63,440 nucleotides of DNA from a virus (IMGVR_UViG_3300047509_000062:1-63440), one strand, 5' to 3'. Counted from the stretch's first letter, positions 24,271-58,776 are shown. Notes: generated by a model from the letters alone, not told the origin. Numbers and translations: made by a program.

Positions 24271-24277
24271 ATGCGTC

Positions 24278-33378: not shown

Positions 33379-34097
33379 TGCTCTATTCATACCAGAAAGA
33401 CTGCCAGCAAATCCTTGCCGATCTCAAGCAGCAGATCGTAAATCCTGGTATTCTCACGTCATTCATCAATAAGGCGCGTGGTCAGATTGCGGCGGAGGGC
33501 CAATGCGTGCGCGTCATGGGTACGCTCATAACTCTCGGCAACGTCCAGACTTATCCATTTTCGAATATCACGGTCTCATCCGTAAGCGGCGTGTCATCGG
33601 TTCTCAATGTCCGCATGATTTCCGCGTCTAACGGTAGCGGCGGTCAATCGTTCCTGAATTTCTGGCCGTGGGAATGGTTCAACAGGTATTTTCTCTGCGC
33701 TACCACGATTCCGGTTGGCACCCCTATTCAATGGACGCAGTACGCTCAGGGCCAACTTGGGAGCCTGTATCTCAATCCAATTCCCATGAGCAACACGACG
33801 CTATCTCTCGACACCGCATGTCTGCCTATTGCGTTGGTGGATGACACGACCGTTGAGGCCATTCCCTATCCGTGGACAGATGCAGTGCCGTTCTACGCGC
33901 TGTATTTCAGCTATATGTCCACGCAGCGGCAGGAAGAAGCGGCGTTCATGTACCAGCGCTATCAGGAATTTGCGGCTCGAGCCCGCATGTTCTCGACGCC
34001 GGGCGTTCTGCCCTATCAGCATCCTCAGTACCCAACGCCTCCGTCTCCAGTTCCTCCACCGGCTCAACCGCAAGCGGCATTCACGGGTCGGCAATGA
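33378..34097 (+). CDS. Head-tail adaptor/ring protein, paralogue 2
   Basis: INKARGQIAAEGQC, WPWEWF, IPYPWTDAVPFYALY. Confidence 0.7.
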   Translation: MLYSYQKDCQQILADLKQQIVNPGILTSFINKARGQIAAEGQCVRVMGTLITLGNVQTYPFSNITVSSVSGVSSVLNVRMISASNGSGGQSFLNFWPWEWFNRYFLCATTIPVGTPIQWTQYAQGQLGSLYLNPIPMSNTTLSLDTACLPIALVDDTTVEAIPYPWTDAVPFYALYFSYMSTQRQEEAAFMYQRYQEFAARARMFSTPGVLPYQHPQYPTPPSPVPPPAQPQAAFTGRQ

Positions 34098-34819
34098 CGA
34101 ACCTGTTTGATTACATGCAGAACGTCGAACGCCTTGTTGGAGACATGCGGCAGCAACTCGTCAACACAGGCGATATTCAGGTCTATATCAACACCGCTCG
34201 CAAGCAGGTGGCCGGCGAGGGTGAATGCGTGCGGGTGCTTGGCACTCTCGCACTCACTCAGGGCGTGAATAGCTATCCGTTCTCGGCTATCAATGTGTCG
34301 GGTACTGCCGGTGTGCAAGGGCCATACAATGCCCGCATGGTTTTGATTGCGGTAGCCAGCGGGCAGACGCTAATCAAAAACGACCCGTGGGAATGGTTTG
34401 TTCTCTACCATCTTAACAATCCGGTCCCGACACAATCAATCCCTACGTCATGGTCTCAATTCGGGCAGGGTGTAAACGGGTCTCTCTACTTCTCCAATAT
34501 TCCTGATACCAATTACACGGCAACGGTGGATACGTCCTGTATGCCGGTCAATCTGACAGACGATACGACTGCCGAAGCGATACCGTACCCTTGGACGGAC
34601 GCAGTGCCATATTTTGCCGCGTATCTGGCCTATCTGGAAAACCAGCGTGGCGACGATGCGCAGAGAATGTACGCTCTCTATGAGATGTTCACGACTAGAG
34701 CGCGCAAAATGTCCACGTCTGCCGTTCTGCCTCATCATTTCGAGCAGCAGCCGAACGTCACGCGGCCCAATCAGCTTGGTCAGATAAGCCGCAAACCTCC
34801 TGCGCAGGCGGTAGGTTGA
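34094..34819 (+). CDS. Head-tail adaptor/ring protein, paralogue 3
   Basis: INTARKQVAGEGEC, DPWEWF, IPYPWTDAVPYFAAYLA. Confidence 0.7.
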   Translation: MTNLFDYMQNVERLVGDMRQQLVNTGDIQVYINTARKQVAGEGECVRVLGTLALTQGVNSYPFSAINVSGTAGVQGPYNARMVLIAVASGQTLIKNDPWEWFVLYHLNNPVPTQSIPTSWSQFGQGVNGSLYFSNIPDTNYTATVDTSCMPVNLTDDTTAEAIPYPWTDAVPYFAAYLAYLENQRGDDAQRMYALYEMFTTRARKMSTSAVLPHHFEQQPNVTRPNQLGQISRKPPAQAVG

Positions 34820-34820
34820 G

Positions 34821-35813
34821 ATGTTGAACGAATATCTCCAAATGACGCAGCGACTTCTCCGCGACAAAAAACAGGAGCTGTTGGACCCTGCGTCGTTGAT
34901 GGTCTATATCAATCGCGCTCGACGCGAGATCGCGCAGCGCACTCAATGCGTGCGGTCTCTCACGCCGATTTCAGGGCAGATCGTTACCGTCTCCGTGACC
35001 AATCCGGGTAGTGGATATACGGCACCGACCGTCGTCATCACGCCGCCGGATTTTCCAAGCGGAACGCTGCCGTATCCTAACGGAAAGCAGGCGACGGCGA
35101 TTGCGACAGTGAGTGCTGGAACAATCTCAGCCATCAACATTCAATTCGGTGGATATGGCTACTATCAACCGCAGATCACGATAACGGATTCGACTGGCAC
35201 GGGCGCAACAGCTACTCCGAATATGTCGTTCATCAACCAGCTTTTGCAGGGGCAGGAGGTCTATCCGTTCAGCCTCGTGAATTTGAGCGCCAATCCGGGT
35301 ATGCTCGCGGTTTACAAGGTGATTAGTGTGAGCATACTGTTTAGTAATTATCGTTATTCATTGCCGATGTACAGTTTCTCAGTTTATCAGGCACGCATAA
35401 GACAATTTGCGCAAGGCACTTATCAATGGATTCCGACGTTTGGTACTCAGTATGGGGTTGGGACTTCTGGATCGTTCGCGATGTATCCTCTCCCAAATGC
35501 CGCTTACCAAATGGAATGGGACTGTTTATGTGTGCCCGCCAATCTCAAAACCGATACTGATACGGAAGTAATACCATCGCCGTGGACTGACACTGTGCCA
35601 TTCTATGCGTGTTTTTTGGCGATGTTGGAGCTACAGAACCATAATTCTGCCCGGTCATTCTTGGAGATATTTGAGAAGGAGTTACACGTTAGTTCTGCCG
35701 GAGCGATGCCTTCTAGGGCTTCAAATCCTTACGGCAGATGGGCTATCCCACTACTAGCTGGGATGGGGCTTGTTCAGATGTTGATGCACTGCTCTTATGG
35801 TGTCGTGATATGA
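34821..35813 (+). CDS. Head-tail adaptor/ring protein, paralogue 4, with an inserted beta domain
   Basis: INRARREIAQRTQC, IPSPWTDTVPFYACFLA; GSGYT insertion. Confidence 0.7.
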   Translation: MLNEYLQMTQRLLRDKKQELLDPASLMVYINRARREIAQRTQCVRSLTPISGQIVTVSVTNPGSGYTAPTVVITPPDFPSGTLPYPNGKQATAIATVSAGTISAINIQFGGYGYYQPQITITDSTGTGATATPNMSFINQLLQGQEVYPFSLVNLSANPGMLAVYKVISVSILFSNYRYSLPMYSFSVYQARIRQFAQGTYQWIPTFGTQYGVGTSGSFAMYPLPNAAYQMEWDCLCVPANLKTDTDTEVIPSPWTDTVPFYACFLAMLELQNHNSARSFLEIFEKELHVSSAGAMPSRASNPYGRWAIPLLAGMGLVQMLMHCSYGVVI

Positions 35814-36563: not shown

Positions 36564-38879
36564 ATGCAAGTCCAATCCACCATCAAAGCCGAACCACCAA
36601 ACGAGCAGCAGATCGCGCCTCGGGGAACGAACCCGATCATCTTCGATACGTTCGCCGGTCTCAACACGAACGCATCGAGGCCGGGGATTGCAGACGATGA
36701 ATGCTCGTGGATGGACGGCTTCATGCCGTTGGGGAAGAATAACCTTCGCACACTTCCCGGAGTTGGACCATCAATCTACACGTCTCCTGCGGGCGTGACG
36801 ATTGTATGCTTTGCGTTTGCGAATATCGGAACGGCGCCGGTTTGCATCGTGTTTCTTAGCGACGGCTCTATCGTACAGGTCAACATTCAGTCCGGGTTTG
36901 CGTTTCAGATTGCGGCGGCTGGAACGATTCTTTCACCATCGCAGCAGAATGTTGGCGTCAGTCAGTGGGGCAATCAGTTTATCCTGATCGTCGCCAATCA
37001 GACGAACGGCTATTTCATATGGAACGGAGGAGTGCTTTTCAGGGCCGGCACCATCGGGGCGCTCGTCAACGTCACCAACTCTGGCCTGAATTATACCAGC
37101 CAGCCAACATTTATCGTTGAGACTACGGGTGGCGGTTCGGGGGCCACATTCAATGCCATCCTCAACAATGACGTGATTCAGGAGATTGACGTAGGCTTGA
37201 CGGGCGGCGGTTACGGCATAAACGACTTCGTGAATCTCGTAATTCAGGGCGGCGGTTCCGACAATACAGCAAGAGCCACGGCTACGATTGGTCCGGGCGG
37301 CGGGATTCAGACAGTAGCGGTGCTCAATGGCGGCGGCGGATATGCGTTTGGCACGAGTGCGACGGCAGTAGGTGGAGGCGGAACCGGGGCTGAATTGCTG
37401 GTCATGGGATTAGTCCCTGACGGCGGGGCCAATAATATAATTCAGAGCATCACGGTTCTAAGCCCCGGAACTGGCTACACGTCGGCACCTACCATTCAAC
37501 TGCACAATGTCGGCAATCCGACCTCAACCGCAACTTTCGCCGTCAGCATATTCGAGGGCGTAATCACAGCCATCAACGTCACCGATCCCGGCACTGGATA
37601 TGTCACGCCTCCGACCGTGAGCCTCATTGGAGATGGCACGGGTGGGAGTTTCATCGTTCAAATCAATAGCTCGGGACAGATTACTGGAATTGTCGTCAAG
37701 GATGGTGGGCAGGGATACACGAAGGCGCTAGTAAAATTCTCCGGCGGTAATAACGCCGCGGAAGGAGATATCACGATCATGCCGTTCGGTATCCAAGGCA
37801 CATGGGCGGAGACCTATGTAAGCCGCGCATGGGTAGCGAACGGGAACAAGATTAGCTTTACGGCTGCGGACTCGTTGCAGGACTTCGCGACCTCGGATGG
37901 CGGAGGAACGATACAAGCAACGGATTCATTCCTTCGGAATAGTTACACCGTTCTCAGGCAGACGAACGGATTTCTGTATATCCTCGCGGATAGCTCCGAG
38001 AATTACATCTCTGGGGTGACAACGAGCGGTGTTCCTCCAACCACGACATTCAACAATCAGAACGCAGACCCGGAAGTAGGAACGTCGTGGCCGTACACGG
38101 TGCAGGTGTTCAACAGAAACATCCTGTTCGCCAATTCATTCGGCGTACATGTGAGCTACGGCGGCGCGGTGACTAAAATATCGGAGGACTTGGACGGCAT
38201 CTATAACACGGTGTTCAACTTCGGCGGCTTCATTCCAAGCTCTGCCAAGGCCATCATCTACGGCAAGCGCGTGTTCATGCTTCTGCTGCCTGTGGTGGAT
38301 ATTATCTCAGGACAGACGGTCAACAAGCTTTTCATGTGGAACGGCAAGAAATGGTTTTCGTCTCAACAAGACGTGCCACTTACGTTCGTAGCCTCGCAAG
38401 AATTGAATTCCGTGTTGACAGCGTGGGGAACAGACGGAACGCATATCTATCCGCTATTCCAGAAGCCATCGACCGGCTTCAACAAGGTCGTGCAGTCAAA
38501 GCTTTGGGACAAGCCGAACGGCTATATGTTCAACAAGACCGATAGCCGGTTGTGGGGGCTGTTCTATTTCCGCAGTCTGGCAGGTTCCAGCCTTAGCATC
38601 AGTGTTGACAATGAGAACGGCGCATCGTCCAGCCCGATAGGGGTTGGTGGACCTCTTGTCGGATGGGTGAATGCGCTGGCAGTCGTGGTGACATGGGCAA
38701 ACGCTATCGGAAACACAAATGTCCTTTGGACGAATTCAGGCGTGGGGATTGTGGTCATGCAGCCGACTGCGGTAGGGCAGCAAGGCGCGTTGGTAGGTCT
38801 AACGCTTACGACAAACGCAGCGGACATGACGGTGATATCTCTCGCCGTTGAGGCCGATAATTGGAACTACCGAGGATAA
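36564..38879 (+). CDS. Tail nozzle / tubular protein B-like with inserted beta repeats
   Basis: 771 aa after the adaptors; F.GLNT start, propeller-like segments, GxGY repeats. Confidence 0.65.
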   Translation: MQVQSTIKAEPPNEQQIAPRGTNPIIFDTFAGLNTNASRPGIADDECSWMDGFMPLGKNNLRTLPGVGPSIYTSPAGVTIVCFAFANIGTAPVCIVFLSDGSIVQVNIQSGFAFQIAAAGTILSPSQQNVGVSQWGNQFILIVANQTNGYFIWNGGVLFRAGTIGALVNVTNSGLNYTSQPTFIVETTGGGSGATFNAILNNDVIQEIDVGLTGGGYGINDFVNLVIQGGGSDNTARATATIGPGGGIQTVAVLNGGGGYAFGTSATAVGGGGTGAELLVMGLVPDGGANNIIQSITVLSPGTGYTSAPTIQLHNVGNPTSTATFAVSIFEGVITAINVTDPGTGYVTPPTVSLIGDGTGGSFIVQINSSGQITGIVVKDGGQGYTKALVKFSGGNNAAEGDITIMPFGIQGTWAETYVSRAWVANGNKISFTAADSLQDFATSDGGGTIQATDSFLRNSYTVLRQTNGFLYILADSSENYISGVTTSGVPPTTTFNNQNADPEVGTSWPYTVQVFNRNILFANSFGVHVSYGGAVTKISEDLDGIYNTVFNFGGFIPSSAKAIIYGKRVFMLLLPVVDIISGQTVNKLFMWNGKKWFSSQQDVPLTFVASQELNSVLTAWGTDGTHIYPLFQKPSTGFNKVVQSKLWDKPNGYMFNKTDSRLWGLFYFRSLAGSSLSISVDNENGASSSPIGVGGPLVGWVNALAVVVTWANAIGNTNVLWTNSGVGIVVMQPTAVGQQGALVGLTLTTNAADMTVISLAVEADNWNYRG

Positions 38880-42618: not shown

Positions 42619-42619
42619 A

Positions 42620-44209
42620 ATGGCAACCGCTCAAAACGTCGTGTCTGATATGTCGGGCGGCAATCCTGCTGGGCCGAACATCTCGACGTTGCAGGGCGCG
42701 ACCAATCGTTATCAGGCGATCGAGAAGAAACAGGAAACCGATCCGGCTCTCAAGGGCGCAGAAAATGAATTCGAGACCAGCTCTGCCGAAGCCAAGCAGA
42801 CCATCTCCGACGTTCAGCAGAAGCTGAAAGGCGTTGACCACGATGCAATGCTCAAGCCGTGGGATGCTCAGGCAGAGGGGGCTAAATACACCACGCCGAT
42901 GATGCAGCAATTCGGCTCAGTCGCCTCTGCATTTGCGCTCATTGCCTCTGCCTTCACCCATCAGCCGCTCATCAATGGTTTGAACGGCGCCGCGGAAGCC
43001 ATGAAGGCGATACAGAAAGGCGATTCCGACGCATACAACCGCGCCTACGATGCCTTCAAGGAGAATTCCGATCTCGCGATCAAGCGTCACGAGATGGAAA
43101 TGCAGGACTGGAAGGTAGCCGCCGATCTTGCTATCGAGAAGCCAGCCCTTGCCGAAGCGACGTACAAGATGCTGTCGGCAAAATACGGCGATGAGAAAGC
43201 GGCGGCGCTATCAGAAGCCGGTCTCATTAAAGACCGCGAGCAGCTTGCAATCAGCCGCTCCGAACTTGGCCTGAAATACAAGGAATTGCAGACCAAGATG
43301 GTGCCGTTCGACATATTCCATCAGTCGATCAAGGAATTCGAGCAACAGAACAAGCGCAAGCCGAATGCGCAGGAAACGGCGGGCCTCTGGGGCCAAGCCA
43401 ATATGTCAGCACAGCTATCCTCCATGACACCGGAGGACCGTCAGTCGATGGGCGCAATGGCAGCAAGTGGAATGCCGTTAAGCCAAGTCGTTCCTGGGTG
43501 GGGAGGGGCTGCTATTCAGCAGCGTCAACAGGCGCGGCACGACGCGATAGAACTCATCCGCAAACAAACCCCCGGCATGTCCGCGACTGAAGCCGGTCAG
43601 GAGTTGGCAAATAGGACCGTCGAGTATCAGAGCGGCAAGCGTTCGGTCGGACAACTTTTCACGATGCTAGGTGCCACTCGGCAAGCCGTGTCTCAGCTTG
43701 ATTACAACATCGAGCAGACCAAAGAGGACATGAAGAAACTGCCGTCCAGCGATATTTCACCGATCATCAACGCGATTGCGCGCGGTGAGCAGAAATGGAC
43801 GGGTAACCCGGCGTACTCAAGTCTGTTCTATCACATGGCCGCGACTGCCACTGAATCGGCTCGCATTCTGTCTGGCGGTCAGGCATCTGTGGCACAATTA
43901 CATGCGGGAGCTCAGGCAGAGGCCCAACAGTGGGCCAATGTCAACATGACGCGGTCGTCTTTCTTGGACCCGAAGAACGGCGTTGCAAAAGCCATGACGG
44001 AAGAAGGCCATTTCCGCCTCAAGACATTCGAGGACGCGATTGGCTATCAGTTGAAGTCCACGACAAGCGGTGGAATGTCGGGCGGCAATCAGGCTCAGGA
44101 GCAATATACCGTTGGGCAGGTTCTAACTGGATCGGATGGCAAGCAGTATCGGGTCAAGAGTATTGATCCTAACGACCCGTCAGACCCTGACGTGGAGCCA
44201 GTGCAATGA
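42620..44209 (+). CDS. Internal virion / ejection protein
   Basis: Helical 529 aa in the ejectosome position. Confidence 0.6.
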   Translation: MATAQNVVSDMSGGNPAGPNISTLQGATNRYQAIEKKQETDPALKGAENEFETSSAEAKQTISDVQQKLKGVDHDAMLKPWDAQAEGAKYTTPMMQQFGSVASAFALIASAFTHQPLINGLNGAAEAMKAIQKGDSDAYNRAYDAFKENSDLAIKRHEMEMQDWKVAADLAIEKPALAEATYKMLSAKYGDEKAAALSEAGLIKDREQLAISRSELGLKYKELQTKMVPFDIFHQSIKEFEQQNKRKPNAQETAGLWGQANMSAQLSSMTPEDRQSMGAMAASGMPLSQVVPGWGGAAIQQRQQARHDAIELIRKQTPGMSATEAGQELANRTVEYQSGKRSVGQLFTMLGATRQAVSQLDYNIEQTKEDMKKLPSSDISPIINAIARGEQKWTGNPAYSSLFYHMAATATESARILSGGQASVAQLHAGAQAEAQQWANVNMTRSSFLDPKNGVAKAMTEEGHFRLKTFEDAIGYQLKSTTSGGMSGGNQAQEQYTVGQVLTGSDGKQYRVKSIDPNDPSDPDVEPVQ

Positions 44210-45633
44210 AATTGTCCGAAATCGGCGGGGCTCCGCAATCAGATCAAAAGACAATGAAGCTGTCTCAGGTCGGGCAGCAGGATTCTCCAAAGTTATCATC
44301 CACCGCCGATTCCGTAGGGCAGGACATGCTCAACACGTTCGGCGGAGAGATAGAGGGCGCGTGGAACAAGCTCAGAACCGATTTCGAAACGACGATGCCG
44401 AACAAGAATTACATTAACGAGGATTTCTGGAACAAACTGAAGGACGATTATCGCCAGACGGTAGCGGCTGGAAGCCTGCCTATTGATGCGTTCAACCTTG
44501 TAATTTCTCCGATAGCTGGAGCGATCAAAGCGGGGCCTGTCAAAGCGGTGGCAGCCGGGGAGCGTGCAGCTATTGGCGCATTGCCTGGTATCGACAAAAG
44601 TAAACTGCCAAGTCAATCCGATACTGAAAATCAGCTCATGGGCGATTTGTCTGCAATAGCCCCCGAAAAAGGCGTGTCATTGGCAGCGCCAGCATCCGCC
44701 GCTGTGCCAACCGTGGATGCTCTGAAAACCGCAGCCCGCAAGGCGTACACGATTGCCGACAGCTCTGGAATGCAGATTGAGCCTCATGCGATCAAGAGCC
44801 TTCATGGCACCATCGCGGCAGACTTGGCGAAGAAAGGCTTTCACGAAAAGCTGATGCCAAAGACGGATGTTGCCGTAAATGAAATCAAGGCAATGGCTGA
44901 AGACAAGAACCCGAAATCTCTTCAAGACATTGATGTGCTCAGGCGTATTGCTGGTCACGCGGCAGGAGCTAGTGAAAAGGCAGACAGGACGATGGCGCGC
45001 GTCGTCAAGGATCATATTGACGACTTCGTTGACAATCTTGGACCGCAACATCTGACGGGCACGAAAGACAACGCGGCGATTGACGCTCTGCATACTGCTC
45101 GTGACGCATGGAAGCGTGCCAGCAAGGGCGAAATCATCGAAGGCGCTATTGAGAAGGCAAAAACGAACGCGAGCCAATTCAGCCAATCCGGGGTCGAGAA
45201 TGCCTTGCGGGTGCAATTCCGCAAGATAGTCAACAACGACCGGGCCATGTCGCGGTTTACTCCCGAGGAACGTGAAGCCATCAAACAGGTCGCGAAGGGC
45301 GGTCCTATTACGAACGCGCTTCGCATGATCGGAAAACTGGCTCCGCACGGGATTGTGTCTCTCGGTCTCAGCAGTGGTGGAGGATATGCGGTTGGCGGCC
45401 CGGTCGGAATGTTGGCCGTTCCTGCTATCGGAGAGGCTGGCAGATTGGCTGCAACGGCCATGACGGAGAGAAACGCTCGTCTTGCATCAGAATTGGTGCG
45501 CAGAGGTGCCAAGCCGCAAGTGAGCGCCGCGAGTGGCGCGCAGAAGATTTATCCGGCAGCTTCGGCAGCAAACGTCCTGCAACCGCGCTCTGCCCGTGAT
45601 GTAGTTGGTCAGCTTGCGGGAGCTACTCCATGA
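44206..45633 (+). CDS. Internal virion / ejection protein
   Basis: Helical 475 aa; SGVENALRVQFR and FTPEEREAI..V.KGG; hydrophobic C-terminus. Confidence 0.6.
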   Translation: MKLSEIGGAPQSDQKTMKLSQVGQQDSPKLSSTADSVGQDMLNTFGGEIEGAWNKLRTDFETTMPNKNYINEDFWNKLKDDYRQTVAAGSLPIDAFNLVISPIAGAIKAGPVKAVAAGERAAIGALPGIDKSKLPSQSDTENQLMGDLSAIAPEKGVSLAAPASAAVPTVDALKTAARKAYTIADSSGMQIEPHAIKSLHGTIAADLAKKGFHEKLMPKTDVAVNEIKAMAEDKNPKSLQDIDVLRRIAGHAAGASEKADRTMARVVKDHIDDFVDNLGPQHLTGTKDNAAIDALHTARDAWKRASKGEIIEGAIEKAKTNASQFSQSGVENALRVQFRKIVNNDRAMSRFTPEEREAIKQVAKGGPITNALRMIGKLAPHGIVSLGLSSGGGYAVGGPVGMLAVPAIGEAGRLAATAMTERNARLASELVRRGAKPQVSAASGAQKIYPAASAANVLQPRSARDVVGQLAGATP

Positions 45634-46157: not shown

Positions 46158-49100
46158 ATGTTCCGGGGCTGGGCGTTTCTTGCCGGATTGTTGTGCCTGC
46201 TCGTAAGCCTCGCGGCTGATGGGCAAGTGGCTCAGACGGGGGATGTCACTATAGGGCATCCTCCGGTTTGGGAATTTAACGGCGTCATCGGCGATGCAGG
46301 CCCGCCCACAAATGGCATTCTGACCGGCGTAGGTGTCACAAACAATTCCGTCACCGGCTTCTGCCAGAACTCTCACCCCATCACGCAGCCATATGTAGAA
46401 TTATGCTTCGGCGTCACGGATTCCATCGGTCAGATCACGCTACAGGGCGTGAACGAAGCTACACCGGGAATGCAGCTCTGCATCAATGGAACATGCTATC
46501 CGTTGCCTCCTGCTGGGGGTGGCGGGGCAATTCTCAATGCTCGCCAGATCGTAACCGGCACGACGGATTCCGGCATCACTGCGGACGGCATTATCTTCTG
46601 GGACAGTGCCTCGACCGGAGCGAAGACAGAAACTCTCTACACCTGCAACGCGGGCACAAAAGGCTACAGCATAGTCGTCGCGGACGAGATCGGAACGGCA
46701 GGGACGTATCCTATCAATATAGTAGCCGCTGGAGGAAATACTATCTTCGGCGTTGCTCAGGCTCCAGTGCAGGCCAATTTCGGCAGTACGAAAGTCATTT
46801 GTGACGGCGTATCGAATTGGCAGGCGGTTCCTACGCCTCTCAATGCGGTATTCAACTGGATCAATATACAGGCTCCGGTTTACGGGGCGGTAAGTGACGA
46901 AGACGATTCCACGACCTGCACATGGACGGCAAGCGTCAAATCCATTACCTGCCCGAACAAGACATTCTCCGCCGCTAACGTCGGGCAAACGCTGGCAATC
47001 GACTACGCCGGTTCATCCTTCCATGCGTTCGTGACGAAATTCACGGGCTTCACAAGCACGCATGTCATGGCACTACAGGATGCGCCTACGACAGGCGGCA
47101 CGCTCACGCATGTCACAGCGTTCGGGAAACCTGCCGTGCAAGGGACCGGCTACACCATCGGGGCTACGCTCAGTCTCGTATGCGGGGCAGGGTGTGCGCA
47201 GATCAATCAGGCGCAAGGCGTCGTCAATGCGATAACGGCTGTCAGTGCTACGGACGCGGTTGCCGGTTCTGGTGGGACAGCATCCGCAACATGCGTTCTG
47301 ACCGGGACGACCGGAACAGCACTCGCGGGACAACTATTCCAAGCCAATGTGACGCTCAACGGCAGCGGCAACATGGGTGCCGGTTCTGTCATCAATTCCA
47401 TATCGCGACCCGGTGTTTACACCGCAGGTATGACCGATATTACCCAAGAGCCGGTTACGGCTGCATCCAACTGCGGCGCGCTCACGGGCGTAAAGCTCAA
47501 TGTTGTGATGGGCGTTTATAACGTCTATGCGAAAACAAGTACCGGCTTCTATTCCGCTCTGACATGCAGTGGGTCAACGGCCTATTCCACTACGTCCAGT
47601 GATTCCGGCACCGGGGCAACCGTCAACTGTAACACAATGCCTGCTGCGGCGCGTTGGGGAACGGATAACACGGCGGCATTTACGGCTGCCATGACGACGC
47701 AGAACACGTTTTCCGTTGCTCACACTCCGAACTGCATCTATCTCCCGGCGGGAAAGTATCTCACCAAACCGTTGAATGTGGCGGTGAACGGGTATGGCTG
47801 TGTTCTTGGAGATGCACAGTTTCAATCGACAATCTTTCTGATCCCAAACACGGCTGGCGATTTCTTTCAGGCTGTCGATTGCGGGAATAACGGCGCGCTG
47901 CAAAATCAGGGCGGCACATTCACCTATTCCGACGATGCGTTTCCCAACAAGGCCGGAAGCCGGTTTGCGGGGTTCACTATCATCGGCATGAGATCGTCCA
48001 GTACGATCCAGAACGGGCTTATGTTCGCCGGTCGATGCCAATGGGTGACGATAGACAACTATCAGACGTACTATGTGCGAGGACGGAGCATTGGCGTTGA
48101 GGGTGATGCAAGCGGTTCTCCATTCGGGAGTTTGCTGGAAACGGCCATCTCGAATACACGATTTGAGAACGGCGGCGATCCGGGAACGGTCGGTGCGAGC
48201 CCACAAGGCACGAACGGTATTCCGATGGTCGATCTGGCGGCTGTTGGGTCAACATCAGGGGCAAACAATCTGCACATTTGGGCCATGCGTATATTCCATC
48301 CGTTCGGTCCCGGCGTCGTGATCCGGTCATGCGCTGCGGCTGACAATGCACATCTCATTGTTCTGACGGATTCGCACTTTGAGCAGTCCGGGCAGGACGG
48401 GACTACGGCAACCGGCGACTTGCTTCAACTCGGGGACAATAACTGCACCGGCGAGACATTTCCGACCATAACCGGGGGAACGGTCGCCGGCACTGCCAAT
48501 CTGTCCGTTGCCGGTGTTACCGCAGCCAACAACACATTCAACAATATGATCGCTGGCTATGCGGCGATACATCTTGAGGGTATTACCGGAACCCCCGGAT
48601 CGACAAACGCAAACAATAACTTCAGCGGCAATATCGTAGGCACTGGGTCATCTCTCGGGGCCGGTATAAAACAGGATGCAGGCCGCAATAACTCATACAC
48701 GTTTTCAGAAAACGCCCCGTCCGACTACGGCATCATCTTTCAATCGACGCCGAACGCGAGTCAGAACGGCGCTAATAATTTCTATAACGGACTTGGTTTG
48801 GGAACGGAAGCCAACGTCAATGCCAATATCGAAGCGGCACTGCAGCCCACAGGAAACAATCCGGTTTCCTATCCAACATATACGACCTCGCCGGGACATC
48901 CTCTCGGGCAGTTTTATATCCAGACCGTTGGCGTAGCGAACGCCGCTGGCGGAAACAATTCTATGGTTGGATCAGGTGTTGGAGGATCGGACCTCGGTGC
49001 GAACTACGCAGTAGTCGGAACTAATATGGATTTCTACGCGGCTGGAGAATACTCGTCAGCGGCAAGTCCTGGCAGCCTTGTTTTCAACTGGAAGTTTGGT

Positions 49101-49415
49101 GGCCCGGTGCTTCTATCAACTACAGTTTCAACCCTGAAGGTAAACGCTACCGCAGTTCCGTGGAATATCGAAGGTCATTGCACATTCCTGACAATAGGGA
49201 CGAGTGCCACCGCATATTGCTGGGGAATGCTTAGGATTACAAATGCCGCAGGCGTATTGCTGAATGTGTTTCTGACGCCAACCGCAATCCCCATCACCGG
49301 ACTCGACACCACGACCATAGGCGGAACGGTGGAGGGCTTCACGACGCAGTGGGGCACATTTGCCACCGGGGATTCCATCATCGCCGACTATCTTGTGTGG
49401 TCGGTTCCAAACTGA
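46158..49415 (+). CDS. Tailspike-like protein with a pectate-lyase-type beta-helix and an N-terminal signal peptide
   Basis: AGGAGA RBS; MFRGWAFLAGLLCLLVSLAADG; YGAV.D...GTDNTAAFTAA...IYLPAGKY. Confidence 0.75.
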   Translation: MFRGWAFLAGLLCLLVSLAADGQVAQTGDVTIGHPPVWEFNGVIGDAGPPTNGILTGVGVTNNSVTGFCQNSHPITQPYVELCFGVTDSIGQITLQGVNEATPGMQLCINGTCYPLPPAGGGGAILNARQIVTGTTDSGITADGIIFWDSASTGAKTETLYTCNAGTKGYSIVVADEIGTAGTYPINIVAAGGNTIFGVAQAPVQANFGSTKVICDGVSNWQAVPTPLNAVFNWINIQAPVYGAVSDEDDSTTCTWTASVKSITCPNKTFSAANVGQTLAIDYAGSSFHAFVTKFTGFTSTHVMALQDAPTTGGTLTHVTAFGKPAVQGTGYTIGATLSLVCGAGCAQINQAQGVVNAITAVSATDAVAGSGGTASATCVLTGTTGTALAGQLFQANVTLNGSGNMGAGSVINSISRPGVYTAGMTDITQEPVTAASNCGALTGVKLNVVMGVYNVYAKTSTGFYSALTCSGSTAYSTTSSDSGTGATVNCNTMPAAARWGTDNTAAFTAAMTTQNTFSVAHTPNCIYLPAGKYLTKPLNVAVNGYGCVLGDAQFQSTIFLIPNTAGDFFQAVDCGNNGALQNQGGTFTYSDDAFPNKAGSRFAGFTIIGMRSSSTIQNGLMFAGRCQWVTIDNYQTYYVRGRSIGVEGDASGSPFGSLLETAISNTRFENGGDPGTVGASPQGTNGIPMVDLAAVGSTSGANNLHIWAMRIFHPFGPGVVIRSCAAADNAHLIVLTDSHFEQSGQDGTTATGDLLQLGDNNCTGETFPTITGGTVAGTANLSVAGVTAANNTFNNMIAGYAAIHLEGITGTPGSTNANNNFSGNIVGTGSSLGAGIKQDAGRNNSYTFSENAPSDYGIIFQSTPNASQNGANNFYNGLGLGTEANVNANIEAALQPTGNNPVSYPTYTTSPGHPLGQFYIQTVGVANAAGGNNSMVGSGVGGSDLGANYAVVGTNMDFYAAGEYSSAASPGSLVFNWKFGGPVLLSTTVSTLKVNATAVPWNIEGHCTFLTIGTSATAYCWGMLRITNAAGVLLNVFLTPTAIPITGLDTTTIGGTVEGFTTQWGTFATGDSIIADYLVWSVPN

Positions 49416-49425
49416 GGCAAGCGAC

Positions 49426-50205
49426 ATGATGAAGCGGCTAATTCTCTCCTTCTGTGCCTTCTGGATGATGGCTGTGCAAGCGGCGGCGCAGCAGCAAGTC
49501 ATTCCTATGGTCGTGAACGGGTCCAATCCGGCCATCAAATGCCAACTCAGTTCATCTTGCCCCATTCCAACCACGGCAAGCGGCTCATTCTCGTCTGCCA
49601 GCGTAGGAACAAACAACGCTACTGCTCCGGGGTCGTCCGACCAGATCGGCTCTCAGGACGGTTCGGGCAAATTGCAGCCCGCGAGTTCGACAAATCCGAT
49701 ACCAGCCACCGATGCCACCACGCACACCAATCAAACCGTTGTGCAGGCGGCTCCGTCTGCCGCAACTCCCGGCACGGTCAATTTCGAAGAGCCTGTCGAT
49801 GTCAACGGGGCGCAGCCGAATTATAGCACGCCTGTAGGCACCTATCCAACGCCTCAGACGGCATCGACGGCAGGAATAGCCGAAGGAGCCTCAACGTCTG
49901 TCGAATCAGGTCATGCGATCAAGGGCAGCGCCGGAATGCGTTACGACATTCAGGTGACTGCGGGAGCCAGTGCAGGAAATTTGATGATCTTTAATTCGAC
50001 AACGGTTCCCGGAGACGGCGCAGTAACGCCAGTGAGATGCGTATCTGTTGGAGCCAATACCACCGTAGATATAGGCGCAAGCGGCGACCCGCCATCATAT
50101 CATTCGACAGGCATATCTGTTGCGTTTTCCACACCAGCAGGCTCGGCGGCTTGTCTAACGAAAACGGCCTCAGCAACCGCATTCTTCTCGTGGAAGGTGC
50201 AGTGA
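49426..50205 (+). CDS. Signal-peptide-bearing virion-associated protein
   Basis: MMKRLILSFCAFWMMAVQAAA-QQ; C-terminal MIFNSTTVPGDGAVTP..C...STGISVAFST domain. Confidence 0.7.
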   Translation: MMKRLILSFCAFWMMAVQAAAQQQVIPMVVNGSNPAIKCQLSSSCPIPTTASGSFSSASVGTNNATAPGSSDQIGSQDGSGKLQPASSTNPIPATDATTHTNQTVVQAAPSAATPGTVNFEEPVDVNGAQPNYSTPVGTYPTPQTASTAGIAEGASTSVESGHAIKGSAGMRYDIQVTAGASAGNLMIFNSTTVPGDGAVTPVRCVSVGANTTVDIGASGDPPSYHSTGISVAFSTPAGSAACLTKTASATAFFSWKVQ

Positions 50206-50819
50206 TGCGCGGTATATTCGCCCCCCTTCTGGCGGCTCTCTTTTGCACGTCGTCATTCGCAGACGAGATTTCGAACAGCGTCCCGATTCCTCTCCCGGCA
50301 ACTTCTGTATCAGGTTTAGCCGCTAGTGCCACAACCGATACGACTAATGCGGCCAATATCGCCTCTGGTTCCCTCCCAATCGGGCGCGAGATCGCCAACG
50401 CTACCTTTCAGGGCACAACCGTTACTGTAGCTCCGAACAGCACAAGCGTTTTCACGATGGGCGGGTTTACCGGGGCGCTCACTCCGACGCGAACCGGCAA
50501 GATTCTGGAATGCTTCTCGGGGTGGATTACCAATTCTGCCGTGACCGTCGATGAAGGGCTGATTATTCAGCTCTCGCATGGTACTGGAACCGCTCCGACA
50601 GCGAATGCGACTCTCACCGGCACTCAGGACGGGGCGCAGGTTACGGGCTCTATTCAGGTAGCCGCTACCGCTGCCGCCGATGTCAACATTCCAATAAGCA
50701 TGTGCGCAGTCGTGACCGGGCTTGCCATAAGCACTGCCATCTGGATCGATGTTGCATCCAAGGGCCTTACGAACACGACAAACACGCTTCACGGCACTCT
50801 ATCGGCTATTGAACTATGA
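50205..50819 (+). CDS. Signal-peptide-bearing fibre-like protein
   Basis: MRGIFAPLLAALFCTSSFA-DE; GLAASATTDTTNAANIASGSL fibre-like motif. Confidence 0.7.
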   Translation: MRGIFAPLLAALFCTSSFADEISNSVPIPLPATSVSGLAASATTDTTNAANIASGSLPIGREIANATFQGTTVTVAPNSTSVFTMGGFTGALTPTRTGKILECFSGWITNSAVTVDEGLIIQLSHGTGTAPTANATLTGTQDGAQVTGSIQVAATAAADVNIPISMCAVVTGLAISTAIWIDVASKGLTNTTNTLHGTLSAIEL

Positions 50820-52801
50820 GACGGTTTCTCGCTGCACTGTTGTTCGTATTCGCGGCTCTTCCGGCCTATGCCGCTGGCAACGACTGGCCCGCGCTGGAAT
50901 TTCATTTCGCCTACGACCCAGATGCGCTGGCGTATTTCAGCGCGCTTTCCTCGAATGGCTGCGCGGCTCCAAGTGGGCAATTCAAGAACGCCTTCAATAA
51001 TTACGTCATCGGCGAGAAGTCGAACGGGTTCTGGGGCACGCAGGCGATGGGGTATCTGTTTACCACGACAGATTCCTGCACGGCTGCGGTCAATATATAT
51101 CAGCCCGTCCTCTACAAGGTCACATGGAACGGCTCACCTACGTTCACGGTCGCGACAGGATTAAAAGGCGACTCTGCAACCATCGACGGCGATACGAATA
51201 TAAATGAGAACGCAATTCCTCTTCTGGCGCAGAACAATTCGCACATTGCGATATGGTCGGCGGCAAATCAGACCAATCTTCTTGGGCAGTCGGCAGGAAC
51301 GATAGTGCAGTTCTATTCGAACGGCGGCTCCAACAATCTTAACACCCGCTGCACTACCTCAACGACCGTCACGGACACAGGAGGCGGAACGGCGGGGCTC
51401 GGCTATTGCGACCGGACTGACTCGGCACATGTGACGACCGGCAAGAACGGCATTGTCCTGTCCAATAATGTCGCCAGCACGTCCGTAGCCCCACAAGCGC
51501 AGCACATGCTGATTTGCCGTAGCGCTGCGGTATTTTGCGCAAGCACTGCGAATATCCTGTTCGTGGAAGTGGGAAGCGCAATATCGAACGAGCAGCTTCA
51601 CTATAACGACGTGAATACGATGCTCGCCGCCATCCAGACTGGCGCTCCTCCAAATCCTGACCAATGCAACGGCGTCGGCAGCGATCCATGCCTGCCGGCG
51701 TATTTCACAGGCTCAGGTGGGGGAACCAATCAGGCTACGGTTGTTGCCGGAACGCTTGCTGTCTCAGCTCATGCGCCATTGCCGAAAGACAACACGATAG
51801 ACCAGACGACGTTCAAGTTCTTCCCGGCCACGATGTTCGAGGGCTCAAACCCGCGTTCCAATGCGAACAGCACCTATTTGAACGGCGGCGGCGTCGGATA
51901 TTTCTCATGGGCGTATCGCAGCAATGGTGTTGATGCCACGCGGGTTGTCACGCCGAATCCTGTAACGCCTATTCAATACTACACGACCGGCGGCAAGAAC
52001 TATCAATGTCTCGTGCCGATGAGTTCGATTGCAAAAGCGGACGCCGCCACCCAAGCGCGAATCGCATGGGCTATCGGCTATCCGGCGCACGATGTCAGCG
52101 GCTTCGGCTATCTCGATCTCACAGAGGCGCAGGGAATCGCTGATGCGCATGTGCTGTTCTATGATTCGGTCGATGGAACACCTAACCTCGCGGACCAAAT
52201 CCAGACGCTATGCACGGATATCACTACCTATCCCGGCTATGCGGCACTCCCTAATGATTACGTCGTACTGCCATACGGGCAGCTCTCGACGCTCTCGACC
52301 ACACCGAAAGATGTCATGGTCGATTGGGAAGTGCAGGAAGGTCATACGTGCGCACAGACGACGGCGCAGATGACAAAGCTCGCATCCATCGTGCATTCGA
52401 AGAGCATGAACTTCGTCGTCTATACCAATCCTCTGGATGCTGGAACATCGCCCTATAACGGCTGGTGTTTGAATGGAGCGGCGGGGGCCAATCTCGATAC
52501 CGTACAGGCGCTGGTCGATTACTTCGGCATCATGTTGTTAGACGGTAACAAGATTGGCACGGTTCAACAGGAACTCGCCTACGCAGTGGCCGGATTTTCG
52601 AGCATCAACTATGCGAAGACCATGCTTATCCCACTTATCAACAAGATCACGGTCTCGGATGCGACCTATCTCCGAAGCCAGATCGTCGCCAACAGCATCG
52701 GTCGCGTCGATATATTCCTGAACGGGGCGATACCGGGAGGCCAATGCTCACGTCCCACGAACGAGAAGATCGGAACTCTTATCGGGATAGCGACGTGCTG
52801 A
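50816..52801 (+). CDS. Signal-peptide-bearing Cys-rich multidomain protein
   Basis: MRRFLAALLFVFAALPAYA-AG; many Cys; the C-terminal part (VMVDWE) may be glycoside-hydrolase-like (uncertain). Confidence 0.7.
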   Translation: MRRFLAALLFVFAALPAYAAGNDWPALEFHFAYDPDALAYFSALSSNGCAAPSGQFKNAFNNYVIGEKSNGFWGTQAMGYLFTTTDSCTAAVNIYQPVLYKVTWNGSPTFTVATGLKGDSATIDGDTNINENAIPLLAQNNSHIAIWSAANQTNLLGQSAGTIVQFYSNGGSNNLNTRCTTSTTVTDTGGGTAGLGYCDRTDSAHVTTGKNGIVLSNNVASTSVAPQAQHMLICRSAAVFCASTANILFVEVGSAISNEQLHYNDVNTMLAAIQTGAPPNPDQCNGVGSDPCLPAYFTGSGGGTNQATVVAGTLAVSAHAPLPKDNTIDQTTFKFFPATMFEGSNPRSNANSTYLNGGGVGYFSWAYRSNGVDATRVVTPNPVTPIQYYTTGGKNYQCLVPMSSIAKADAATQARIAWAIGYPAHDVSGFGYLDLTEAQGIADAHVLFYDSVDGTPNLADQIQTLCTDITTYPGYAALPNDYVVLPYGQLSTLSTTPKDVMVDWEVQEGHTCAQTTAQMTKLASIVHSKSMNFVVYTNPLDAGTSPYNGWCLNGAAGANLDTVQALVDYFGIMLLDGNKIGTVQQELAYAVAGFSSINYAKTMLIPLINKITVSDATYLRSQIVANSIGRVDIFLNGAIPGGQCSRPTNEKIGTLIGIATC

Positions 52802-53231: not shown

Positions 53232-53594
53232 ATGCCAAGTGACGGCCTACTCAAAGCAATTCTTCTCGGCCTCCTTCGCCAATTCGGCGGCTGGCTTGCA
53301 GGCATCCTCATTGCCCACGCTGGAATCACGCTCGCGAAATACGGGATTTCATCCGATACCGCAAGCCAGCTTGTAATCGAGGCCGTTGCCGCAATCGGCA
53401 TGACAGGGTTCGCCTTCGTCTATTCGGTAAAGGACAAATACGCGGTCGCCGGAAAGATCATCGATGTTGCGCAGACTGTCGCGAACGATCCGACGCTAGG
53501 CCCAAAGATCGCAAAAGCCGTGAACGCGGACATTCAGGGCAAAACGCTGCCGCCTTCGCAAACGCTTGTGCAACTCACCAAGGCGGTTCCGTGA
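53232..53594 (+). CDS. Putative holin
   Basis: Membrane protein directly after the endolysin. Confidence 0.55.
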   Translation: MPSDGLLKAILLGLLRQFGGWLAGILIAHAGITLAKYGISSDTASQLVIEAVAAIGMTGFAFVYSVKDKYAVAGKIIDVAQTVANDPTLGPKIAKAVNADIQGKTLPPSQTLVQLTKAVP

Positions 53595-53623: not shown

Positions 53624-54118
53624 ATGTCAAAGCTAGACGCAAAGCATTTGAGATCAGTGCTTAATTATGATCCGATCACTGGATTGTTTGTTTGGCGAAA
53701 GAGTGGTGCTGGGCACCGAAGCAATTTCTTAGCCGGTAGTGACAAATCCCACCAGTACAGCAGAATCGCGGTTAGTGGGCACCTGTATTATGCCCATCGC
53801 CTTGCGTGGCTCTACATGACTGGAGAATGGCCGCCAAGTGATATAGATCACATCAATGGCATAAAAACTGACAATCGTATAAGAAATCTTCGTGTTGCAA
53901 CTAGAAGCCAAAATATTGCTAATTCTAGGACTGCGACGACAAACTCCTCCGGATTTAAAGGGGTGCATTGGGAAGCGGTACGCTCGAAATGGAGAGCACA
54001 GATAGTAGTTGACGGTAAAAGGAAATGGAGCGCTCGTTTTGACACTCCGGAGGCAGCGCACGCGGCATATATAGATGCCGCAGTAGAATACTTCGGAGCA
54101 TTTGCTAGAAGCGGATGA
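53624..54118 (+). CDS. HNH endonuclease with an AP2-like domain
   Basis: LNYDPITGLF.W, YAHRLAWLYMTGEWP..DIDHINGIKTDNRI.NLR, NSSGFKGV.W. Confidence 0.92.
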   Translation: MSKLDAKHLRSVLNYDPITGLFVWRKSGAGHRSNFLAGSDKSHQYSRIAVSGHLYYAHRLAWLYMTGEWPPSDIDHINGIKTDNRIRNLRVATRSQNIANSRTATTNSSGFKGVHWEAVRSKWRAQIVVDGKRKWSARFDTPEAAHAAYIDAAVEYFGAFARSG

Positions 54119-54119
54119 C

Positions 54120-55062
54120 ATGCCTGACCAGTGGAATTTCGACACATTCAAGGAATATGTGGATGAGGCTTTCGCTGCAAAAGACCTTCGGGACAGCCAG
54201 CGATTTGAGGCTCAGAAGGAAGCCCTCGCTGCCGCTCTCGCCGCTGCCGAGAAAGCCAATATCACTGCCCTTGCTGCTGCCGAGAAAGCCGTCACCAAGG
54301 CCGAAGTTGCCGCTGAAAAACGGTTTGACGCCGTTAATGAATTTCGGCGCACTCTGTCCGATATCGTTGCTACGTTCATGCCACGAGCCGAAACGATGGC
54401 GTTGATCGGGGCGCTTACGAAAGACGCGGACCTGAACAGGGGACGGCTCGACAAGATTGAGGGAAGCGGTGGTGGAAAGCACGATCTTGGCATCATCATA
54501 TTTGCTGTCTGTGCTGCGGCTTTCGGGTTTGTCAGTTCGTTGGCGGCTATTTGGACGATATTCCATAAATGAGCGATCGCGGCCCTCCTCGACCAAACGG
54601 CGACACGGAACTGCGAAAACTACAGCGCCGGCTTGATAAGCTCGAATACGACCTTGCGGACTTCAAGCAGCAGCATCGGGCCGATATGGATAGCGTAAGG
54701 CAAACCGTCGAATCCAAGGAGCGGGTTGTGGTGGCGCTCCACGAGAAAATTGACGAACTCAAGCGGTCTGGAAAGTGAACCAAGTGGCCGAGCAGAACAT
54801 TACCGAAAACGGCATGAGACGCGGCTTCGAACAGGTCATCACCTACCTCATTGGTGCCGGCATCGTCGGCATCATCATCTCGCTATGGGCGCTCAACAGC
54901 ACGGTATCCCGGCTTGACGACCGGACCCAGGTACAGGCTTCGGCCATGTCCCAGATGGCGCAGGACGTGAGCAAGCTCACAAGCGATGTGGGGGTTCTGA
55001 CGGGGCGGCTTGAGCAATACGCGAACGACAACCAGCGCCCGGAAGCGGCTAAGAAGCGATGA
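54120..55062 (+). CDS. Three coiled-coil/membrane lysis-region genes (54120-54572, 54569-54778, 54775-55062)
   Basis: Coupled ORFs with TM segments and coiled coils. Confidence 0.6.
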
Positions 55063-57437: not shown

Positions 57438-57797
57438 ATGATCCGAAAACTTCTACTCGCAAGCGGGATGGCGATCATGCTGTCGGCTTGCGGAACCACA
57501 GGCGGCGGCACGGCAACAACCTGCTCGACCCCCATCTGCGTATCCGAAAAGCTCCTGACCGGCGCCCATGACGTTCATGCAGCCATCGCAACCGTAGCCG
57601 ACCAGCTCGCGGTGAGCGGCGTCCTACACGGCACACAGGCAACGCAGGTCAAGCAACTCATCGACCAATCCGAAGCGATCTTAACAACGGCTGATACTGC
57701 CGTCGCCGCAGGAAACGCAACCACCGTAGCGCAGCAAGTGGCTGAAGCAACCACTCTTGTCGCGCAGATTCAAGCCATCATCGGAGGCATGAAATGA
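57438..57797 (+). CDS. Lipoprotein
   Basis: Signal peptide with lipobox LSAC; AAGGAG RBS. Confidence 0.8.
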   Translation: MIRKLLLASGMAIMLSACGTTGGGTATTCSTPICVSEKLLTGAHDVHAAIATVADQLAVSGVLHGTQATQVKQLIDQSEAILTTADTAVAAGNATTVAQQVAEATTLVAQIQAIIGGMK

Positions 57798-58543: not shown

Positions 58544-58776
58544 CCTGGATCATGGCCGCGATAAACTTCATCCTCGGCCTCATGGGCTATTCCAAGGGCA
58601 CGAGTGACGGTACAATCGCGGCGCAGGAAGCCGAACGGGCGGGGGGCGCGGAGCAACGTGCCTCAGACGCCACTGCAGCCGCCCAGAGCGAGGCTCGCGT
58701 GGCGCAGAGCGAGGCTCAGGACGCGGGGCAGACGAGCGCGGACGTGGACAAGAGGATTTCCGATGGCACGTTTTAG
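58540..58776 (+). CDS. Putative i-spanin (Rz-like)
   Basis: N-terminal hydrophobic segment plus coiled coil, ending in DGTF; overlaps a lipoprotein gene. Confidence 0.55.
   Translation: MTWIMAAINFILGLMGYSKGTSDGTIAAQEAERAGGAEQRASDATAAAQSEARVAQSEAQDAGQTSADVDKRISDGTF

Follow-up and report, generated by a model that had tools for sequence, protein, structure and literature searches.

Virions of tailed phages are thought to be assembled wholly in the reducing cytoplasm of the host, and to our knowledge the phage proteins that depend on Sec serve in lysis or in exclusion. Phage proteins that carry signal peptides and act in the envelope include pIII and pVIII of filamentous phages, of which pIII needs periplasmic disulfide formation, as well as the receptor-blocking lipoproteins T5 Llp and Cor. 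Here we describe four consecutive genes, A to D, in an uncultured virus (IMG/VR record IMGVR_UViG_3300047509_000062; the window is the whole stretch of 63,440 bp that was analysed). Their products resemble tailspike or fibre proteins and carry predicted Sec signal peptides together with paired cysteines. This combination suggests host-recognition proteins that are matured outside the cytoplasm, unlike those of any studied tailed phage. Filamentous phages, in contrast, have no tail and their assembly takes place at the membrane, and Llp and Cor are small lipoproteins, whereas A–D are large, tail-protein-like and have no lipobox. A full-text literature search of main texts yielded no account of a tailed phage whose tail fibres or tailspikes are exported by Sec.

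The tailspike set of phage CBA120 provides the most direct comparison. In the available text of PMC8825819, which also covers G7C gp66, TSP1–4 are encoded by four consecutive genes, and the N-terminal part of the hub protein TSP4 (AD-XD1-XD2-XD3) attaches the complex of four tailspikes to the baseplate and also binds TSP1–3, via gp10-like XD domains. A–D are likewise four consecutive genes, and A combines a region in the anchor position, an XD domain and a beta-helix body. However, the CBA120 and G7C hubs are cytoplasmic (TSP4-N was crystallised from residue 1 and has no signal peptide), whereas A has a signal peptide and 22 cysteines. A also differs from TSP4 in showing an XD1-type domain only, the identity between them is ~15–18%, and CBA120 is a myovirus while the phage of the window appears podovirus-like.

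Two other groups of exported proteins are comparable in part. The Sec-exported and signal-arrest-release (SAR) endolysins, such as Lys44 of phage fOg44 and P1 Lyz, are, in the available account, late phage proteins that rely on the Sec machinery of the host and stay in the envelope until holin action (PMC6116005). A–D would be alike in this respect, but those proteins are lysis enzymes and neither virion nor receptor-binding proteins, whereas A–D are tailspike- or fibre-like. Pantoea WceF and Vibrio RbmB, like A, join a polysaccharide-active beta-helix fold with an export signal. Unlike A, they are chromosomal biofilm or exopolysaccharide (EPS) genes, with no gp10-like XD module or tail gene context in the available account, and WceF uses the twin-arginine translocation (Tat) pathway (PMC7949094).

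The four open reading frames (ORFs) are present where the earlier note had placed them, with starts at 46158, 49426, 50205 and 50816. The ATG of A lies 1 nt past the upstream stop and is preceded by a Shine-Dalgarno-like GGAG at −12; that of B has GAGG at −12. The ATG of C overlaps the stop of B (TGATG) and follows an AAGG, and the ATG of D overlaps the stop of C (ATGA). Longer TTG or ATG starts (46128, 49360 and 50037) would run into the preceding gene. The tight packing of the genes and the Shine-Dalgarno sites fix the start codons, so that wrong starts were set aside. An in-frame GTG at codon 24 of A (46227), just 5' of the conserved motif described below, would if used yield a signal-peptide-less isoform resembling cytoplasmic relatives; no Shine-Dalgarno-like GGAG or GAGG lies ahead of it. 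Promoter and terminator scans found no excess of such sites at the cluster, and A–D are translationally coupled with their neighbours and the endolysin gene, as would be expected for late-gene co-expression with the tail and lysis genes.

Signal peptides were called by a score of our own for the n-, h- and c-regions, together with conservation in homologues. When the score was applied to 113 N-termini (112 window ORFs and gene C), D (6.02), A (5.65) and B (5.51) were the three highest, and C (4.83) was fifth, behind a lipoprotein-like ORF at 58763 (5.11). Each of the four N-termini has one or two basic residues, an uncharged hydrophobic core of 14–15 residues and small residues at −3 and −1, with a predicted site near residue 19–20. 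By this heuristic all four have the layout of Sec-type substrates of signal peptidase I, as the earlier note had proposed. The signal peptide region of A is poorly conserved in sequence, yet hydrophobic in all 51 signal-peptide-bearing family members. By the same heuristic the endolysin of the window has no signal peptide.

Two other types of export signal were looked for and rejected. No lipobox is present in A–D, and none stands before the cysteines that A, B and C have in their h-regions; a receptor-blocking lipoprotein identity of the Llp or Cor type was rejected on this ground. The lipobox scan of the window returned ORFs only at 57438 (+) and at 54843–55031 (−, inside an antisense frame), and the signal peptide of the ORF at 58763 also ends at a lipobox-like cysteine. 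No twin-arginine motif with a long n-region was found in A–D. D begins M-R-R, but its peptide has 19 residues and is strongly hydrophobic; Tat export of A–D was rejected on the shortness and strong hydrophobicity of their signal peptides.

The mature parts of A, B, C and D contain 22, 4, 2 and 14 cysteines, all even numbers. The earlier note had counted about 22 in A, mostly in neighbouring pairs; the number is exactly 22, and the pairs that it quoted (108/113, 342/346 and 254/265) are all found, with 69/83 and 1008/1021 as further close pairs. The remaining large virion proteins of the window have 0–5 cysteines, including one in the capsid protein, three in the 771-aa tail protein and 1, 0 and 0 in the three proteins at 41326–45633. 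In the relatives of A the cysteine columns behave pairwise: both cysteines, one only and neither are found in 23, 2 and 3 rows for 69/83, in 32, 1 and 1 rows for 163/215, and in 6, 1 and 25 rows for 37/47. Even numbers, co-varying conserved pairs and loss in non-exported relatives (below) are the sequence marks expected of a disulfide-bonded protein.

The same features recur across the family. A phmmer search with A against 1.84 billion cluster representatives (clusters at 50% identity) found 574 relatives at E ≤ 1e-3, of which 223 are at E ≤ 1e-10. These relatives split into two modules, an N-terminal region (residues 1–224) and a body (residues ~230–900), and many homologues of the beta-helix module do not have the N-terminal domain. 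The N-terminal subdomain opens with a conserved motif, which in the family reads QSGxVTPGH..W (extended, QSGxVTPGH..W..G.(I/V).D.G) and in A itself QTGDVTIGH..W. Almost all full-length relatives of A start with a signal peptide. Of 150 homologues of A examined, 121 have a signal-peptide-like N-terminus by our heuristic, with sequences unrelated between relatives, and 110 of these 121 have an even number of cysteines in the mature part. The other 29 comprise fragments, a few missed signal peptides and some that are truly signal-peptide-less.

Pattern scans with the motif of A (alignment A3) gave 14 viral, 1 genomic and 53 metagenomic loci, 68 in all (designated L with a number), where the genomic scan covered representative genomes of 185,579 species. 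The sole genomic locus is a 3-kb contig of a Planctomycetales metagenome-assembled genome (MAG), which gave no capsid-protein match and so provides no reliable host clue. A locus search of viral contigs with A alone, or with A and P0011, gave no confirmed locus. A hidden Markov model (HMM) of the N-terminal subdomain found 104 ORFs in the 68 loci that start with the motif. In 62 of them the motif comes right after a predicted cleavage site, and 60 of these 62 have at least two cysteines in the subdomain; both exceptions are cut by a contig end, and the fully aligned ORFs of this form have at least two without exception (50 of 50). In 37 of the 104 no signal peptide precedes the motif, which opens the protein; this class is defined by a motif 0–8 residues from the initiator methionine or by an upstream frame that is closed or has no hydrophobic segment. 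Here 29 ORFs have no cysteine in the subdomain, seven have one and one has two. Four of the remaining ORFs are unclear and one is cut. Among complete locus ORFs of the signal-peptide form the number of cysteines is even in 42 of 43 and zero in none. P0113, the closest signal-peptide-less relative (52% identity over residues 24–122 of A), carries valine, valine, glutamate and leucine at the positions of cysteines 69, 83, 108 and 113 of A.

Because the motif occurs both in a signal-peptide form with cysteine pairs and in a signal-peptide-less form in which the cysteines are replaced, in the same genomic slot, export and oxidative folding of A–D outside the cytoplasm are well supported at the level of sequence. 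Both had been proposed in the earlier note, which had also named conservation of the signal peptides in homologues as a check; by the heuristic they are conserved in 121 of 150 relatives for A and in 85 of 119 for B.

The tailspike beta-helix that the earlier note had seen in the largest gene was recovered at the level of fold. In an AlphaFold model of full-length A built from 97 alignment rows, the right-handed parallel beta-helix of residues 500–910 is confident, while residues 230–500 are poor (mean predicted local distance difference test (pLDDT) value 65). A Foldseek search of the Protein Data Bank (PDB) gave 92 matches at E ≤ 0.001. These include the phage tailspikes Geobacillus virus E2 ORF18, AS12 gp42, Sf6, CBA120 TSP2 and TSP3, and K5A lyase, as well as the bacterial beta-helix enzymes AlgE4 epimerase and RbmB lyase. 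The modelled helix agrees with that of pectate-lyase-superfamily depolymerases, although A has no Pfam match at E ≤ 0.1. PF12708 (pectate-lyase-like) is found in a signal-peptide-bearing cluster protein (L012, 10390–12171) and in a signal-peptide-less motif protein (L014, 9989–12052).

The N-terminal 230 residues of A, modelled alone from 37 rows, reach a pLDDT of 86 and form the signal peptide helix (residues 5–20) and two beta subdomains. In the PDB this model is most similar to the N-terminal fragment of CBA120 TSP4, a gp10-like baseplate protein of Klebsiella phage KP1, T4 gp10 and T4 gp9. VIA-align superposes residues 124–228 of A on residues 78–179 of TSP4 with Z 13.3 and a root-mean-square deviation of 2.1 Å over 100 residues; the corresponding Z scores for T4 gp10 and gp9 are 11.2 and 10.0. 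In an exhaustive scan of 48,161 chains only seven reached Z ≥ 8, and TSP4-N came first (Z 13.0, 133 residues, model 58–228 against chain 25–179). Within this match, residues 21–120 of A align in part to the anchor region of TSP4. Cysteines 163 and 215, both in the XD1-type domain, occur together in 32 of 34 informative alignment rows. BFVD gave 216 matches at E ≤ 0.001, many of them named tail fibre, pectate lyase, gp9 or gp10.

The TSP4-like XD and anchor fold, together with the beta-helix body, indicates that A has the architecture of a hub protein in a branched set of tailspikes. A gp10-like XD domain after an N-terminal anchor region and a modelled beta-helix enzymatic body are present, while XD2 and XD3 were not recognised and no family membership was found by sequence or profile. 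On the models A is a tailspike, and its likeness to a TSP4-type hub is at the fold level only. A has no Pfam (E ≤ 0.1) or PHROG family, and tblastn against 50,697 phage records gave no match.

None of A–D has a Pfam family, and among the four PHROG recognises only the N-terminal domain of D (phrog_17104, E 6.9e-10); the profile leaves only 10 positions before the domain, so that a signal peptide would not fit in it. Among the 119 relatives listed for the C-terminal domain of B, 85 have a signal peptide, and of these 83 have an even number of cysteines and none has zero. The clearly signal-peptide-less relatives have ordinary fibre-protein starts and 0–1 cysteines. Neither B nor a signal-peptide-less relative matched the 50,697 phage records by tblastn, in which D gave one weak match, to a Microcystis phage. 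A word-index search with D found one weak relative, which has no signal peptide. The structural neighbours of C in the Atlas are viral hypothetical proteins, and those of residues ~24–277 of D give a LamG/GH18 hint; with neighbour scores of 0.83–0.89, both are leads only. In the first 15 loci a phmmer search with B, C and D gave no match. BLAST gave two weak matches, and a weak one for C is to a 233-aa ORF of L004 that bears a signal peptide. Relatedness between B and C was not detectable.

The features of the window that bear on this locus are collected in Table 1. The record is complete or nearly so (99% by CheckV), and its right half is a late block on one strand. The G+C content is ~56% across the whole window, and that of the A–D cluster is like that of the remainder. 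The ORFs scanned included no recognisable tape-measure or sheath gene, and the phage appears to be podovirus-like. No integrase was found among these ORFs, and searches with the capsid and terminase proteins, together with tblastn against the 50,697 phage records, found no close cultured phage; the capsid and terminase matches are to distant uncultured or unrelated phages only.

Table 1. Positions of genes and domains in the late block of the window
Feature	Coordinates	Strand	Remarks
Terminase	24257-26182		Late block start
Portal-sized protein	26984-28708		
Capsid protein	30408-31457		34% identity to the annotated capsid proteins from two uncultured phages
Head-tail adaptor, SU10 adaptor family	34094..34819	+	PF24175, E 1.5e-10; start from alignment with relatives
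Adaptor paralogue with inserted immunoglobulin-like (Ig-like) domain	34821..35813	+	
Tail protein, 771 aa, conserved	36564..38879	+	40-52% identity in relatives
Fibre-like protein, 299 aa	38881..39780	+	No signal peptide; 2 Cys; homologue in L022
Three large conserved proteins	41326-45633		Between the fibre-like gene region and the small genes before A
Soluble protein, 79 aa	45630..45869	+	Similar small proteins before the cluster in L004 and L006 (compared by eye)
Protein of 96 aa, two predicted membrane helices	45866..46156	+	Helices at residues 31-49 and 72-90 (hydropathy); directly 5' of A
Gene A, 1085 aa	46158..49415	+	Predicted signal peptide, domain in anchor position, XD1-like domain, middle part with poor model, beta-helix, beta domain at C-terminus
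A, predicted signal peptide, residues 1-20	46158..46217	+	Score 5.65; helix 5-20 in model, detached from beta domains
A, N-terminal subdomain, residues 21-120	46218..46517	+	Opens with conserved motif; Cys 69/83, 108/113
A, XD1-type (T4 gp10-like) domain, residues 124-228	46527..46841	+	Cys 163/215
A, right-handed parallel beta-helix (depolymerase-like body), residues 500-910	47655..48887	+	pLDDT mostly 80-98
Gene B, 259 aa	49426..50205	+	Predicted signal peptide 1-19, Ser/Thr/Ala-rich linker, ~125-aa C-terminal domain common in metagenomic proteins
Gene C, 204 aa	50205..50819	+	Predicted signal peptide 1-19, linker, beta-rich C-terminal part
Gene D, 661 aa	50816..52801	+	Predicted signal peptide 1-19, N-terminal domain 31-256 of phage family, C-terminal 380 aa
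Endolysin, GH24 phage lysozyme	52803..53231	+	PF00959, E 3.9e-33; phrog_7; starts 1 nt past D stop
Holin-like small hydrophobic protein	53232..53594	+	Named from position; Phage_holin_10 weak, E 0.072, below cut-off

The order of tail genes in T7-type podoviruses is adaptor, nozzle, internal core proteins, tail fibre gp17 and lysis genes. As in this order, A follows large conserved proteins 3' of the adaptor and nozzle-like genes and precedes the lysis genes; in contrast, the nearest relatives place the A-type gene between adaptor and nozzle. No likeness to gp17 in sequence was seen, though no search aimed at it was made. The earlier note had set the cluster between ejection and lysis genes. 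The lysis side of this stands, as the 3' neighbour is a Phage_lysozyme gene, while 'ejection' as a label for the proteins at 41326–45633 reflects position and analogy only. The 771-aa protein is taken as nozzle-like from its size and the gene order, and the adaptor at 34094–34819 is a candidate docking ring. The adaptor and its neighbour are paralogues with N- and C-terminal blocks in common and the Ig-like insertion in the second, and the gene at 33375–34097 matches the same tail-protein PHROG as the adaptor-region genes. No Pfam or PHROG family match was found for the fibre-like protein at 38881–39780. The 96-aa protein has no Pfam family; in L004, L005 and L006 a protein of similar layout likewise stands before the signal-peptide cluster.

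Several other genes of the window were noted. The 475-aa protein at 44206–45633 matches phrog_21712, 'major head protein' (E 1.4e-41), yet the capsid protein is clearly the one at 30408–31457; probably the PHROG label is wrong, or the protein is some other head-associated or internal protein. A reverse-strand gene at 35743–36534 encodes 263 aa with 14 cysteines and has homologues in L013 and L014. Its match to NinG is weak (E 0.0075, below cut-off), and it fills the position, between the adaptor paralogue and the 771-aa protein, that an A-type gene holds in sister phages. A gene with HNH_3 and AP2 domains, homing-endonuclease-like, lies at 53624–54118, 3' of the holin-like gene and 5' of small membrane or coiled-coil ORFs. 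The ORFs at 57438–57797 and 58763–59005 have lipoprotein-type signal peptides, a lipobox followed by cysteine; they could be outer-membrane spanin or exclusion lipoproteins, and they suggest a diderm host. The left, early part of the window contains a RecT-family recombinase (1454–2662, −), a DNA methylase (9663–11129), a tRNA-Gln(ttg) (16496–16569), a PfkB-family sugar kinase (19338–20390) and a TPR protein (21483–22910).

Homologues of window proteins beyond A–D are carried by 23 of the 68 loci, most of the others being short contigs. In sister phages with capsid proteins 67–80% identical to that of the window, the A-type gene occurs at two positions. The first is that of the window, after the large proteins 3' of the nozzle-like gene (L004, L005, L006 and L012), where it sits in clusters of 2–5 signal-peptide genes. 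The second lies between the adaptor paralogue and the 771-aa nozzle-like gene, in sister phages whose capsid proteins are 67–77% identical to that of the window (the L046 contig is too short to include the capsid gene). It holds signal-peptide forms in L022, L007 (the same as L034) and L046, of which the complete ones (L022 and L007) carry 20 cysteines, and signal-peptide-less forms in L010 and L013, with 7, 0 and 8 cysteines. The presence of either form in this one slot speaks for a single function with two routes of maturation. In the window A is the sole carrier of its N-terminal motif. A signal-peptide-less protein of ~160 aa in 29 loci (L003, L004, L017, L021, L030, L051 and others) has only its first 35–40 residues, the motif, in common with the exported form. 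It might occupy the docking site as a placeholder, serve as a short fibre or act as a partner; the window gave no match to an HMM built from these small proteins.

The reading that we favour is that A–D are receptor-binding proteins of the virion that mature in the periplasm and are attached to particles at lysis; we regard it as evenly poised between true and false. A–D would be an accessory host-recognition apparatus, a branched set of tailspikes and fibres like the four-tailspike complex of CBA120, but made as Sec pre-proteins. Late in infection they would be translocated to the periplasm, where signal peptidase I would cleave them and leave the anchor motif of A a few residues behind its new start, where the signal-peptide-less relatives have theirs. 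The cysteines would then be oxidised to disulfides and the four proteins would assemble together; a common assembly compartment would explain a signal peptide on all four. In the cytoplasm, DNA-filled particles would be completed by addition of the conserved tail proteins and of the fibre-like protein that has no signal peptide. They would meet the periplasmic set only once the holin has breached the inner membrane, or following lysis, and the anchor and XD module of A would dock at the adaptor/nozzle region. We infer export, cleavage, disulfide formation, complex formation and docking, the export and oxidation from sequence statistics and the complex and docking solely from fold and synteny. 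A wider proposal, held somewhat more tentatively, is that an uncultured and widespread podovirus-like lineage may build part of its receptor-binding apparatus, stabilised by disulfides, on a TSP4-like hub within the periplasm and add it after holin action, and that fibres of one gene family have repeatedly switched between the cytoplasmic and periplasmic routes by gain or loss of a signal peptide together with cysteine pairs.

A number of observations weigh against this account. Sec export would part A–D from the cytoplasmic capsids, so that attachment to virions would need a step after holin action or lysis, and we know of no precedent for such attachment of exported tail proteins. A signal-peptide-less fibre-like gene (38881–39780) is present, so A–D could be dispensable for infection. 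The ~160-aa motif protein lies directly 5' of the signal-peptide form in 23 of its 29 cases and might be the true virion-bound piece. No docking module was recognised in B, C or D, and no relation of these to TSP1–3 was found; the full-length model of A is poor over residues 230–500. The coupling of signal peptide and cysteines involves few independent switches: a poorly resolved tree has 5 changes, of which 3 are forced, and the 3 independent pairs are all concordant (sign test, p 0.25, not significant). Some loci are duplicates of one phage (L006/L029, L007/L034, L009/L010, L051/52/54, L049/50/59 and L065/66), and the signal-peptide calls come from a crude heuristic and not from SignalP.

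The main rival, possible but rather unlikely, is that A–D are exported and never become part of the virion. They would be descendants of tailspikes and fibres that have gained signal peptides and act in the envelope of the infected cell, by destroying or masking the receptor from within (as superinfection exclusion, or to protect progeny from debris), by loosening capsule or EPS for release, or as freed depolymerases. The evidence for export applies equally here, and export takes A–D out of the compartment in which tailed-phage particles assemble. The cluster adjoins the endolysin and holin-like genes, and the signal-peptide-less fibre of the window could be the real receptor-binding protein. 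Exported bacterial glycanases of tailspike fold exist, such as WceF with its Tat signal (in the available text of PMC7949094), and RbmB is among the fold matches. However, a free enzyme has no obvious need of a TSP4-like anchor and XD module, yet module and motif are strongly conserved in the signal-peptide forms. Further, these forms occupy the adaptor/nozzle slot in three sister phages (L022, L007 and L046), a slot that also holds signal-peptide-less forms (L010 and L013). A–D have no lipobox, unlike blockers of the Llp or Cor type, and no promoter and terminator signature like that of a moron was seen. Of the two fates that the earlier note had offered, joining virions at lysis or acting as a free secreted enzyme or blocker, fold and synteny tilt the balance towards the first.

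It is improbable that the hydrophobic N-termini are not cleaved, and serve as signal-anchors in the inner membrane, or that downstream starts such as the GTG of A give cytoplasmic forms. A start at this GTG would give an N-terminus much like those of the signal-peptide-less relatives, the signal peptides were called by a heuristic, and the helix of residues 5–20 in the AlphaFold model would here be a membrane anchor. But cores of 14–15 residues are short for a membrane span and are followed in all four proteins by small −3/−1 residues, and the GTG has no Shine-Dalgarno-like GGAG or GAGG before it. The even numbers of cysteines, the pairs found in signal-peptide forms only and their replacement elsewhere would also be hard to explain without an oxidising compartment. 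More improbable still is that A–D are a moron cargo block of bacterial secreted proteins unrelated to virion function: no Pfam family was found for A–D, and many homologues of the A beta-helix have neither the N-terminal domain nor a known context, but the motif scan gave 1 locus in genomes of 185,579 species against 14 viral and 53 metagenome contigs, 23 of the 68 loci have homologues of structural or other phage genes of the window, the fold matches are phage tail proteins, and the G+C content of the cluster is the same as that of the remainder of the genome.

A large family (574 clusters at 50% identity for A alone) joins likeness to tail proteins, signal peptides and a disulfide signature, in a tail-gene slot of a coherent group of phages. 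If A–D are not virion parts, they would represent a large class of phage-encoded envelope enzymes derived from tailspikes. If they are virion parts, the particle would be assembled in two compartments, with the last step timed by the holin. Receptor-binding proteins stabilised by disulfides would then be possible, infectivity would depend on the Sec and Dsb systems of the host, and in annotation a signal peptide would no longer count against a structural role.

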